From the NCBI GenBank assembly GCA_951406725.2, contig OX597834.1, positions 6,200,001 through 6,264,000 on the forward strand: a DNA stretch of 64,000 nucleotides, given 5' to 3'. Position numbers and translations under genes: made by a program. Of this stretch, positions 8,845-47,412 are shown in pieces. Position 1 is the stretch's first letter. Each line of letters begins with the position of its first letter. The DNA comes from Octopus vulgaris (Eukaryota). The notes beneath the pieces are model-generated. The model was given only the letters and a program-made list of their open reading frames with translations, was not told the origin of the DNA and made no database searches.

Positions 8845-9428
8845 ATTTCTTATTTCTTTCCTGCCCACAAGGGGCTACACACAGAGGGGACAGACATACG
8901 GATTAAGTCGATTATATCAACCCCAGTGCGTAACTGGTACTTATTTAATCAACCCCGAAAGGATGAAAGGCAAAGTCGATCGCGGCAGAACTTGAATTCA
9001 GGACATAAAGACAGACGAAATACCTATTTCTTTATTACCCACAAGGGGCTAAACACAGAGAGGACAAACAAACGGATTAAATTGATTATATAGACCCCAG
9101 TGCGTAACTGGTACTTAATTTATCGACCCCGAAAGGATGAAAGGCAAAGTCAATCTCAGCGGAATTTGAACTCAGAACGTAGCGGCAGACGAAATACCTA
9201 TTTCTTTACTACCCACAAGGGACTAAACACAGAGGGGACAAACAAGGACAGACAAACGGATTAAGTCGATTTTATCAACCCCAGTGCATAACTGTTACTT
9301 ATTTAATCGACCTCGAAAGGATTAAAGGCAAAGTCGATCTCGGCAGAATTTGAACTCAGAACGTAACGGCAGATGAAATATTGCGAAGCATTTCGCCCGG
9401 TGTGCTAATGTTTCTGCCAGTTTGCTTC
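8845..9428 (-). mobile_element. SINE family B, tandem trimer
   Basis: One head plus three ~175-bp bodies joined at GAAATAGGTATTTCGTC. Confidence 0.9.
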
Positions 9429-11431: not shown

Positions 11432-11952
11432 TTTGGCAGAAACTTTAGCGCGCCGGGCGAAATGCTTAGCGGTATTTCGTCTGTCGTTACGTTCTGAGTT
11501 CAAATTCCACCGAGGTCGACTTTGCTTTTCATCCTTTCGGGGTCGATAAATTAAGTACCAGTTACACACTAGGGTCGATATAATCGACTTAATCCGTTTG
11601 TCTGTCCATGTTTGTCCCCTTTGTGTTTAGCCCCTTTTGGGTAATAAAGAAATTGGTATTTCATCTGCCGCTACGTTCTGAGTTCAAATTCCACCGAGGT
11701 CGACTTTGCCTTTCATCCTTTCGGGGTCGATAAATTAAGTACCAGTTACACACTAGGGTCGATATAATCGACTTAATCCGTTTGTCTGTCCATGTTTGTC
11801 CCCTTTGTGTTTAGCCCCTTTTGGGTAGTAAAGAAATAGGTATTTCGTCTGCCGCTATGTTCTGAGTTCAAATTCCACCGAGTTCGACTTTGCCTTTCAT
11901 CCTTTCGGGGTCGATAAATTAAGTACCAACTATGCACTGGGGTCAATGTAAT
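11432..11952 (+). mobile_element. SINE family B tandem multimer
   Basis: Head, two full bodies and one partial body. Confidence 0.9.
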
Positions 11953-12429
11953 CTAGCGGATGGAATGACCTCACAGGTGTTCCCCCTCAAGATCACTTTA
12001 CTCAAATATATTTATGTCCCCTCAATTAAGTGTTCTGGTACCAACTTGAAGAACTATTATCCTCATTAATTCCCACTTATATTAGTCAGTAATTTTTAAA
12101 CTCATAACTGTTATGTCTGAGAATTTTAGTCAAAGTCTTTTACCAACTCCAAAGTGTTTACTGAGATCAGGTCATTGGCAGTTAGTTGTCATAAACTCAT
12201 ATGTCCTCTGGCAACTTGGTGCTTTCGCTGTCATAAAATATCAGAATGGTAAAAGATTAAGATTACTGTCTTCGTCTCCAGCATCTCTTAGTAACGAAAA
12301 ATAATAAGTTCCATCCACGTCTACAGGAATGGTATGTCAGCAGGTTTTAATGATGGTCGAATTTGAAATGATTTAAGGGGCTTTCTTTGCTAAGATGATG
12401 AAAAAGACGATTGCAAGAATGTTGTTGCA

Positions 12430-23459: not shown

Positions 23460-23875
23460 GGCGGCGAGCTGGCAGAATCGTTAGCACGCTGGGCGAAATA
23501 CTTAGCGGTATTTTATTTGCCAGTACGTTCTGTGTTCAAATTCCGCCAAGGTCGACTTTACCTTTCATCCTTTCGGGGTCGATTAAGTAAGTACCAGTTA
23601 CGCACTGGGGTAGATATAATCGACTGAATCCATTTGTCTGTCATTGTTTGTCCTCTCCATGTTTAGCCCCTTGTGGGTAGTAAAGAAATAGGTATTTTGT
23701 CTGCCGCTACATTCTGAGTTCAAATTCCGCTGAAGTCGACTTTGCCTTTCATCCTTTCGGGGTCGATTAAATAAGTACCAGTTATGCACTGGGGTCGATA
23801 TAATCGACTTAATCCATTTGTCTGTTCTTGTTTGTGCTCTCTGTGTTTAGCCCCTTGTCGGTAGTAAAGAAACAG
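23460..23875 (+). mobile_element. SINE family B dimer
   Basis: Head GGCGGCGAGCTGGCAGAA plus two bodies; ~15-bp TSD GATACTGAAATGTTC/GATATTGAAATATTC. Confidence 0.9.
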
Positions 23876-24420
23876 ATATTGAAATATTCACAACAGACTT
23901 TTTCTATCAGCATTTTCCTTTGCACTTAACATAATAAAGGGACAGAATACATGTTTTTATTATTTCCTGACCATGTGTGAATATGTGTTTGAAGAAGTGT
24001 GATGAGGGTGGAACGGAATATTTGAAGCGAGAGAAGAGACAACCAAGAATGGAGATTGCAAACCGATACACAATGTAAAGAAGATGAAAGCTTGAGGAGA
24101 GAAAGAGAGAGAAGGGGGGAGGAAGAGAGAAAGAGAGAGAGAGGGAAAGGAAGAGAAAGTGTTTGTGTAGAAGACTCAACAAGTGCAAGAAATACTGAGA
24201 TATGGAATGTCTTGTAGTTCAGATGGCACCTTCTGATACTGGAAAAGGAACTTGCTCAAAGAATCTAGGAAGCATTTGTGCTTAAAATGGAAATATATGA
24301 AGTGGTTAGAAATACTGGAAAGAGAGAGAGAGAGAGACAAAGAGAGAGAGGATAAAGACAGAAAAAGAGAGAGGGAACGGCAGAGAAGAAGAGAAAGGGA
24401 AGAAGGAGAGATAGAGAGAA

Positions 24421-31382: not shown

Positions 31383-31852
31383 ATTTTTCCCTGTGTAGTT
31401 TGTCTTGTACTCTGTTTTTTTCGTTTAGGTCCGTTTCCACGTTTGTATTTTTACGTTTTCGTTTCTCATTGAGTTCTGCGTCTATTTGTGGTGTCCTGTA
31501 CTCACGTATATATATTTATATATGCATGTATATATACATGTAGATGTAGGTACATACTTATATGTATGTATGTATGCATATATTTTGTTTATTACAATAT
31601 ATATATATATATATACATATATATATACACACATATACATATATTTATACATATACATGTCCTGAAAACTCACAGTCTTGGCTTTGTTATCTCTTTTTGC
31701 CTAGGAGTAGATAAAACAGGGGACAACTGATGGAGGGAATGTTCTTTATGTTCCCGTTTTTCATTTTGTTCAGGTATTTTTGATGTCCTGTACCCATATA
31801 TGCATGTATATATACATATCTAGGTATGTACATATATGTATGTATATATGCA

Positions 31853-31952: not shown

Positions 31953-32024
<72 letters not shown>

Positions 32025-32098
32025 TATATTGGTAAAAACGGTAAGAGAACAAAAGAAAGAAAGAGATCTCAATATTATGTAAATAGAGGAAATTTATC

Positions 32099-32300
32099 TA
32101 TACAATTATATGTTACATTACTCGATAGTCAAGATAAAACTCTGAGTTTCAGATGCTGAAGTGGAAATCCACAACACCATCTCTTCAGTTATCTGGAAAT
32201 AGCCAGATAACTGAAGAGATGGTGTTGTGGATTTCCACTTCGGCATCTGAAACTCAGAGTTTTATCTTGACTATCAAGTAATGTAACATATAATTGTATA
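32099..32300. repeat. 98-bp-arm near-perfect palindrome (spacer 32197-32202)
   Basis: Arms are reverse complements with 2 mismatches. Confidence 0.95.
32205..32267 (+). ncRNA. Type I hammerhead (mirror copy on the - strand at 32132-32194)
   Basis: AGATAA CTGAAGA GATG...CATC T GAAA CTC A GAG TT TTATCT. Confidence 0.75.
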
Positions 32301-32800
32301 TATATATTTATATATATATATATATATATATATACATACAATATATATATATATTATTTATATTATTATATGATTGAACACCACACATCCATTTCCAAGA
32401 AAGTTTTATCTTAATAATTCAGATGTCCACTCTACACTCGCCATTCTCCCTTCGTTTATTTTGCTTTCTTTCTGTTTTCTTCTCCTCTCCTTCAACGTTC
32501 TCTTCCTCTTCCTCTCTCTCCCTCACTCTTCCTCCCTGACTCTCTCATTGCTCACACATGACCAGTGACTATCCTTCTTCATTCCTCTCGCTTTACATGA
32601 GATAAGACCTACTTTTGCCTGACTCTTGTCAAAGCTTTTTTCTCCAGCATTCACCACTTCATCTCGTTATAGCTTAACAGCCCTTAGAGTTTATTTTTAC
32701 TGTGTTGTTCTTACTGTCCTGTTTTTGTTACCACTTTAACTTGCCACGAAATCCCAAATTTTATTCAATTTGCTTTGCGGGAAGGACTGTTTTAATAAAG

Positions 32801-32862
32801 TCGCATCTTGTCCTAACCTTCGAAATGCGGAGTTGATAAAACAGGGGACAACTGACGAAGGG
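32801..32862 (+). ncRNA. Non-circularly permuted hammerhead candidate, copy 3 (best preserved)
   Basis: CGCA-TC-TTGTCC taa CCTTC-GAAA-TGCG, 16-nt linker, GGACAA-CTGACGA-AGGG. Confidence 0.7.
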
Positions 32863-32999
32863 ATTGTTCTTTATGTTGCCCGTCTTGTTTCCCTATTTGT
32901 TTCTTTTGTTGTCCGAAAAAAAAGTTCATTTTCCATGTTCTTGTTGTTTTTTTATGTTCCCATTTTTCCTTTTTTTCATGTTTTTTTGACATCCTGTAC

Positions 33000-33149
33000 A
33001 CATATATGCATGTATAATTACATATATATGTAGGTATGTACATATATGTATGTATATATATGCATATTTATATATAAATTATTTATATTATTATATGATC
33101 GAATGCCACGCATCCATTTCCAAGTAAGTTTTATCTATCTATCTATCTA

Positions 33150-33188
<39 letters not shown>

Positions 33189-33211
33189 ATACATATATAC
33201 ACATATATATA

Positions 33212-46883: not shown

Positions 46884-47412
46884 GGCGGCGAGCTGGCAGA
46901 AACGTTAGCACGCCAGGCGAAATACTTAGCGGTATTTCGTCTGTGCTTACGTTCTGAGTTCAAATTCCGTCGAGGTTGACGTTGCCTTTCATCCTTTCGG
47001 GGTCGATAAATTAAGTACCAGTTACGCACTGGGGTCGATATAATCGACTTAATCCGTTTGTCTGTCCTTGTTCGTCCCCTCTGTGTGTAGCCCCTTGTGG
47101 GTAGTAAAGATATAGATCGATTAAATAAGCACCAGTTACGCACTGGGGTCGATGTAACCAACTTTATCCGTTTGTCTGTCCTTGTTCGTCCCCTCTGTGT
47201 TTAGCTCCTTGTGGGTAGTAAAGAAATGGGTATTTCGTCTGCCGCTACGTTCTGATGTCAAATTCCGCCGAGGTCGACTTTGCCTTTCATCCTTTCGGGG
47301 TCGATAAAATAAGTACCAGTTACGCGCTGAGGTCGATGTAATCGACTTAATCCCTTTGTCTGTCCTTGTTTGCCCCCTCTGTGTTTAGACCCTTGTGGGT
47401 AGTAAAGAAATA
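46884..47412 (+). mobile_element. SINE family B multimer
   Basis: 15-bp TSD GGTATGGGAAAC(T/C)AA at 46868-46882 and 47413-47427. Confidence 0.92.

Follow-up and report, generated by a model that had tools for sequence, protein, structure and literature searches.

A hammerhead-type RNA motif with a detached stem II strand, likely to be a self-cleaving ribozyme, in Penelope-like repeats of Octopus vulgaris

Hammerhead ribozymes are described by Eckert et al. (2023; PMC10085705), in the parts of that paper drawn on here, as three blocks arranged in six orders. The block containing CUGANGA is assumed to be uninterruptible, and known hammerheads have one or two nucleotides at most between CUGAnGA and the adjacent stems. 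Type SGC is a double pseudoknot in which a helix connects stems I and II at their free ends. A direct link of this helix to stem III was considered hard to fit in three dimensions, and in related type-SGC RNAs whose helices are joined directly, single constructs undergo cleavage. The SGC examples came from metatranscriptomes, with none reported in genomes of known organisms. Minimal type I hammerheads are known from Penelope-like elements (PLEs) (Cervera and de la Peña, 2014; PMC4209133). For Naiad elements, the parts of Craig et al. (2021; PMC8557442) considered here report no canonical hammerhead but ten cores and eight half cores ("HHR_core / HHR_half_core").

We analyzed a window of 64,000 nucleotides of Octopus vulgaris DNA (contig OX597834.1, positions 6,200,001 to 6,264,000), and all positions below are those of this whole stretch. 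A first-pass annotation had placed a hammerhead with its strands in the non-circular order C-B-A at 32801-32862, as a member of a repeat family. The three strands were found where it put them and with the bases it wrote, and the order is among the reported non-circular permutations, since it corresponds to type SGC (Eckert et al., 2023, in the parts used). The cleavage block is 32802-32813 with the triplet AUC and C17 at 32807, GAAA is located at 32822-32825 and CUGACGA at 32852-32858, all checked against the window letters. The core bases of a hammerhead (CUGANGA, GAAA and UH with A15.1-U16.1) are all present. Stem III is perfect, stem I has six Watson-Crick pairs and one G-U pair, and the perfect pairing claimed for both stems was confirmed. 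A descriptor of the C-B-A order with stems I and III matched only this site on both strands of the window and had no match in 100 first-order Markov windows. Rfam gave nothing at the gathering score across the window, and no hammerhead at E ≤ 10 in 32000-33200. The folding z-score of the isolated sequence was only -0.64, and the minimum-energy fold of 32777-32888 keeps a rod of two helices while hiding the core in another hairpin. Such single-strand folding is uninformative for this motif because it cannot form pseudoknots.

The strand order was found to be enriched across the genome. We used two mutually exclusive search patterns, with GAAA either 20-40 or 22-30 nucleotides upstream of CUGANGA. 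They gave 11,083 places vs. 346 control places and 15,087 vs. 1,883, respectively (26,170 vs. 2,229 for both patterns summed). CUGANGA and GAAA were demanded by the patterns, while U16.1 and position 17 were left free. A total of 122 matches was examined in positional order (30, then 62 of the next 70, then 30); the eight places left out of the 70 were two resembling a type I family and six at the end of the list. At least 10 of the 11 pairs in stems I and III were formed beside UH in 59 of the 122, compared to 158 of 24,400 shuffles (0.65%) and 101 of 2,652 cross-family pairings (3.8%); as the families are related, the shuffle counts are no probabilities. Many of the matches that were not intact are 5'-truncated copies. 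The distance from H17 to G12 was 12-16 nucleotides in all 59 intact matches, which is the short linker between stems I and II of type SGC. Two pattern matches (L064 and L090) were rejected as chance matches adjoining hammerheads of circular order. A Penelope-like element is present at these two loci (L090:573-1343 and L064), comprising part of an endonuclease-like ORF and a type I hammerhead in which an additional A follows the core.

The first-pass annotation had proposed that copies be collected and their stems checked for covariation, and stems I and III were found to covary across divergent repeat families. Positions 15.2-15.5 and 2.1-2.6 carry two to four types of Watson-Crick pair across the intact matches. 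Helix statistics were based on a sequence-only MAFFT alignment of 33 hand-picked copies. Stems I and III together with a further helix, here termed the scaffold helix, were 87.1% paired vs. 62.1% in shuffled alignments, with double changes at 17 of 18 pairs, and controls in which the strands were slid reached at most 49%. Position U16.1 was invariant in all 33 rows. From one main group of families to another the stems are entirely different in sequence, and helices I, II and III of a hammerhead were all found with compensatory changes, stem II in the form described below. The predicted cut after C32807 keeps its place, with UH located between covarying strands of stems III and I. A mutual-information scan was dominated by family relatedness, and the scan of family E had too few rows. 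Within a family, mean conservation in 30-nucleotide windows was 0.79-0.96 for the element as a whole and 0.85-0.93 where the motif lies. Selection is therefore visible between families only, since copies within one family decay neutrally with a core no better conserved than its flanks.

Stem II was found to differ from the earlier drawing, which paired 32817-32821 with 32859-32862 just behind CUGACGA. Across families this downstream pairing had a covariation of 0.193 vs. 0.207 for shuffled alignments (361/500; one register counted), and the remaining registers consist mostly of G-U pairs. The segment 32781-32785 upstream of the core pairs perfectly with 32817-32821 over 5 bp. In the 33-copy alignment this upstream stem II was 84.8% paired vs. 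61.9% shuffled, with a covariation of 0.657 vs. 0.233 (0/500). A perfect 5-bp upstream partner for the own strand was present in 42 of the 59 intact matches, vs. 1 of 2,080 cross pairings. Within the window's family (73 copies) the pair 32784:32818 was G-C in 47 copies, C-G in 16 and mismatched in 10 (p = 5e-8), so that the change from C to G at 32818 is compensated upstream and not downstream. G10.1-C11.1 was found in all 38 aligned copies of families A-D. A stem II placed behind CUGANGA after an insertion of 1-5 nucleotides was dropped, since the downstream pairing lacks covariation whereas the upstream pairing covaries.

Because its stem II partner lies upstream (32781-32785), A9 is not joined to G10.1, neither directly nor through one or two nucleotides, and a stem II strand with a second scaffold strand is not found 3' of CUGANGA as in type SGC. 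Strand A, composed of a stem I strand, CUGANGA and a stem II strand, is therefore not one block, the 10.x strand being located 5' of the whole motif. From the stem II covariation, A9 would be followed by a small hairpin (32859-32871; conserved in families A-D with little covariation), and G10.1 would be supplied from the 5' end. The pair 32815:32864, whose bases are in the stem I-II linker and in the loop that follows the core, was also found to covary (36 A-U, 40 U-A, 10 A-A or U-U, 5 other) and may be a tertiary contact.

The scaffold helix is formed by 32787-32794 and 32837-32844 and is the equivalent of the helix joining stems I and II in type SGC. Double changes were found at 7 of 7 pairs, with 78.7% paired. 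It connects stems I and II in sequence and is joined to stem III on both strands. The linker of 16 nucleotides described between strands B and A has the spacing given, but it is not free, as 32837-32844 takes part in this helix. An alternative scaffold helix with a segment 3' of the core was not favored (5.31 vs. 5.07 in the cross-family control). A weak helix of 3-4 bp (32777-32780 with 32885-32888) may close the motif, although the test of own vs. cross pairings was negative for it (5.02 vs. 4.86). The motif spans about 32777-32888, which contains the core blocks of the shorter extent first proposed.

The order of the strands in the chain is established by covariation. Read from the 5' end on the + strand, the chain consists of the stem II 10.x strand (G10.1-10.5, 32781-32785), the scaffold 5' strand (32787-32794), a purine-rich internal loop (32795-32801), the stem III 16.x strand with U16.1 and C17 (32802-32807), the predicted cut, and the stem I 1.x strand (32808-32814) followed by a linker of 2-3 nucleotides. 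The 3' half comprises the stem II 11.x strand with G12-A13-A14-A15.1 (32817-32825), the stem III 15.x strand with the 3' side of the internal loop (32826-32836), the scaffold 3' strand (32837-32844), and, continuous with it, the stem I 2.x strand with the CUGACGA core, C3-A9 (32845-32858). Two kinds of internal loop were recognized at the junction of stem III and scaffold helix, presumably AGUA/GAA loops and kink-turns. The kink-turn consensus has a 3-nucleotide bulge and tandem GA. It was found in 13 of 15 copies of family E and, by eye, in Naiad copies of this genome. In families A-D it fitted 2 of 44 copies, while 18 of 44 had the AGUA/GAA loop, and the loop of the window's family is of this latter type. 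A kink would let the scaffold helix fold back, and assembly from two copies would be the alternative where there is none. An AGUA/GAA loop need not bend, and a straight rod of stem III and scaffold helix could not reach stem I within one molecule, which argues against a one-molecule fold.

Every core base and all four helices are intact in the window copy. Its stem III has an A-U at a pair that is G-C in most copies, and its internal loop differs from the family majority by three changes (32796-32797, and 32834 opposite). Since the loop motif is lost, this copy is possibly slow or dead; it is partly decayed, and it may or may not have kept the ability to cut itself.

Compared to type SGC as represented by HRIMA-1 and its variants, the motif has the same order of cleavage site, GAAA and CUGANGA, the same short linker between stems I and II, a helix that connects these stems at their other ends, and a double pseudoknot. 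It differs in that its stem II strand is at the 5' end, whereas in type SGC this strand follows CUGANGA within one uninterrupted block, and in that both strands of the scaffold helix are connected to stem III. The motif can be described as the SGC circuit with the 3' tail, i.e., the stem II and scaffold strands, moved to the 5' side and connected to stem III, and with the chain opened between A9 and G10.1. As A9 and G10.1 are unlinked, the fold represents the published type-SGC hammerhead in circularly permuted form, with the opening located inside the core. The first-pass annotation was thus right in calling a pseudoknotted hammerhead of non-circular order but not in its exact topology. Cleavage was shown for SGC hammerheads and is predicted from sequence for the present motif, which would work like a hammerhead while departing from one stated feature of the six known orders. 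In the parts of the literature examined, an opened A9-G10.1 link has no tested precedent, and this counts against a catalytic reading. The openly accessible literature searched contained no description of this wiring, nor of SGC-order hammerheads in Penelope-like elements.

The motif is located in a dispersed repeat of about 0.8 kb without an ORF (32290-33136, + strand), which is pseudo-LTR-like and flanked by (TA)n. Its terminal direct repeat is 32290-32411, equal to 33013-33136. Membership in a repeat family was borne out: a first look gave 2167 candidates, of which 40 were scored, and the best of these were 88-90% identical, i.e., about 10% away from the window copy. The copies have their 3' end in common and differ in where they are cut at the 5' side, 5'-truncated copies being common, and we took the + strand to be the sense strand for this reason. 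A partial copy at 31704-31793 (+ strand) starts 21 nucleotides 3' of the predicted cut and is probably part of the same insertion of more than one unit. Tandem units measured 699-855 nucleotides, and one array begins at the predicted cut site. Pseudo-LTR structure, 5' truncation, tandem and inverted arms and (TA)n targets were all observed here and are features of Penelope-like elements. We found no ORF with GIY-YIG endonuclease and reverse transcriptase beside the examined copies of the window's family, whose mobilizer can for that reason only be inferred, and Pfam gave nothing in the 15 window ORFs tested (of 72 listed). A GIY-YIG fragment 650 nucleotides behind the motif in two loci (L166/L261) was not linked to it, as other repeats intervene. 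The same applies to a broken piece of a PLE linker and GIY-YIG-like ORF beside a fold-back copy of the element (L013, C2:59388003-59391143). Contigs of four runs, which we guessed to be RNA, contain family-like sequence, with no information on ends, strand or level.

In the parts of Cervera and de la Peña (2014; PMC4209133) used here, the minimal type I hammerheads of PLEs resemble the present motif in lying on the sense strand of terminal repeats, in forming many variable families per genome, in having G10.1-C11.1 and in their proposed role in precursor-RNA processing. They are of circular order with a tiny stem III needing dimers, whereas the present motif is non-circular with a full stem III and a scaffold helix. 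Non-LTR retrozymes are, in the parts of the sources used (bioRxiv 10.64898/2026.07.22.740005; PMC7229834), similarly non-autonomous, tandem, hammerhead-bearing derivatives of Penelope-like terminal repeats. They are described with classical type I hammerheads, whereas the units of the window's family (700-855 nucleotides) form tandem monomers with a hammerhead order that is not type I.

Several further features were observed in the window and beside a copy of the element. The segment 32399-32648 of the element is intron-like, with an acceptor at 32648, a pyrimidine tract and a donor-like site, which is intact at about 33123 in the repeat. It recalls the 5' UTR intron of Penelope, and no matching spliced joint was present in the contigs of the four runs guessed to be RNA. 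Another Penelope-like end forms a tail-to-tail inverted repeat at 32090-32309 (arms about 95% identical), lying within the TA run that separates the two parts of the studied element. Each arm carries a minimal type I hammerhead of circular order (plus arm about 32205-32267), resembling Hydra-clade motifs in the relevant parts of Craig et al. (PMC8557442). A second abundant repeat with head-to-tail units of 174-184 nucleotides was found on both strands at 8851-9380, 11471-11953, 23507-23880 and 47003-47224. Near one copy of the element (L008, C21:22594600-22597740) a 198-amino acid open frame looks like a host gene or a retrocopy.

We proceeded to the 5' ends of the copies, which were sampled in genome order via an anchor 3' of the core. 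Family A comprised 69 copies, one locus (L237) being dropped as mis-anchored, and 10 of the 122 examined matches were unassigned. In family A, 15 of 57 copies at risk started in the 20 nucleotides after 32807, compared to 2 of 42 in the 20 nucleotides before (p = 0.004). The site ranked 5 of 403 for a window of 15 nucleotides, 4 of 398 for 20 and 1 of 388 for 30. Of the 27 family-A copies starting in 32808-32867, 25 did not continue into the next unit. In family E (72 copies), starts in the 15 nucleotides following the site were found for 15 of 65 copies, compared to 1 of 50 in those preceding it (p = 7e-4), and the site was tied best of 192 positions for 15 nucleotides and ranked 3 and 4 for wider windows. 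Two family-E copies start exactly at the site and none in the 8 nucleotides before it. The starts are scattered over 30-60 nucleotides after the site and not confined to one base. Much of the template would be uncut, since most copies run past the site (42 of 69 in family A, 50 of 72 in family E). This step in copy 5' ends in two families is an indirect sign of cleavage. The pile-up fits templates beginning at the cut, and stalling in the structure may add to it.

The motif was found associated with Naiads in this genome. The motif is present at one locus (L262) and at 29 others, all of which match Naiad_Ovul/Obim at the 3' end, as judged by eye. At another locus (L291) a reverse transcriptase remnant lies 1.1 kb upstream of the motif on the same strand (Pfam RVT_1, E = 1.3e-5, below the curated cut-off); such a remnant was found beside the Naiad-type family only and not beside the window's family. 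By eye, in a comparison covering part of the 54 published records, the 3' ends of Naiad_Ovul, Naiad_Obim, Naiad_Plae and Naiad_EuTe in the supplement of PMC8557442 have the strand order described here, together with stems I and III and a partner for stem II upstream. The same features of the fold were seen in Naiad-2_Movir, three Acropora Naiads and one record that is probably Clytia. These Naiads resemble the window motif in strand order, stems I and III, upstream stem II partner and (TA)n targets, whereas nematode Naiads have circular-order cores in the same supplement passages, and the window's element differs from Naiads in having no ORF. The shared fold suggests that the window's family descends from a Naiad. 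The 3' ends of Saccoglossus Naiads in this supplement have a different conserved 3' UTR motif, unlike the present fold, and this hemichordate motif may be another structured RNA.

Altogether, these observations suggest that the hammerhead-type motif, in which stems I to III and a scaffold helix covary across many families, is probably a self-cleaving ribozyme that cuts Penelope-like retroelement RNA after C32807. The scaffold helix would connect stems I and II at their outer ends, and it would be folded back onto stem III by a bend, which has the kink-turn consensus in some families. With this tie and bend, the normal core of three helices could be formed by one RNA even though A9 and G10.1 are contributed by separate parts of the chain. 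Cutting of tandem or read-through transcripts would generate the 5' end of a template, which a Naiad-type reverse transcriptase would copy into (TA)n sites. Truncated copies would then begin at or just after the site because the cut sets the 5' end of the template.

The same helices and the same cut could also be assembled between two copies, with straight rods in which the stem I strand and CUGANGA dock on the loop of a tandem neighbor. This fits with the rod being the minimum-energy fold, with most copies of families A-D having no kink-turn, with the occurrence of tandem units, and with the dimers proposed for metazoan PLE hammerheads in the parts of PMC4209133 used; covariation, moreover, does not separate cis from trans. 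The kink-turn consensus in 13 of 15 family-E copies and in Naiad copies is, however, what folding back within one molecule would need, and directly joined helices are compatible with cleavage of a single construct in the related type-SGC RNAs (PMC10085705, in part). We therefore regard a two-copy assembly as unlikely. It is still less likely that the motif is a conserved non-catalytic structure, derived from or resembling a hammerhead, that binds a protein or pauses the reverse transcriptase, with copy ends piling up by stalling at the pseudoknot. The case for catalysis is built on sequence, the core bases were demanded by the search patterns, and copy ends are spread over 30-60 nucleotides after the site. 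However, U16.1 (33/33) and a position 17 other than G were outside the patterns and are found exactly between the covarying strands of stems III and I, and the step in copy ends is at the predicted cut, whereas a stall would be expected to place it at the structure's 3' edge.

An ordinary type-SGC hammerhead as first drawn, with stem II just behind CUGANGA after an extra A, or after 5 inserted nucleotides in family E, is very improbable. Three to four consecutive pairs with G-C first can be drawn there, and PLE hammerheads commonly have one base unpaired behind A9, but the pairs are mostly G-U with covariation not above shuffles, and the change at 32818 is compensated on the upstream side. This pairing may still be a competing fold. 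A chance arrangement within a repeat would agree with the low folding z-score, but it is hardly credible in view of the cross-family covariation, which excludes it, and of the controls for order enrichment, descriptor and upstream partner, which also argue against it.

If the motif is a ribozyme, it would add a seventh topology to the natural hammerheads, outside the six block orders of 2023, in which a helix linked through a kink-turn braces a core whose backbone is open between A9 and G10.1. We find it reasonably likely that this is the missing ribozyme of Naiads across cnidarians, acanthocephalans, crustaceans and cephalopods, present in more than 20,000 copies in this genome, and that the 5' end of the template for retrotransposition is set by its cut. 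Non-circularly permuted hammerheads would then pass from rare metatranscriptome contigs to animal genomes, where their copy number would be very high, and CUGANGA and the stem II strand could no longer be assumed to form one block. It would also explain why Naiads seemed to have no hammerhead. The step in copy ends makes the role of hammerheads in Penelope-like retrotransposition testable, and the numerous natural variants with different stems would provide material for structural work and mutagenesis.
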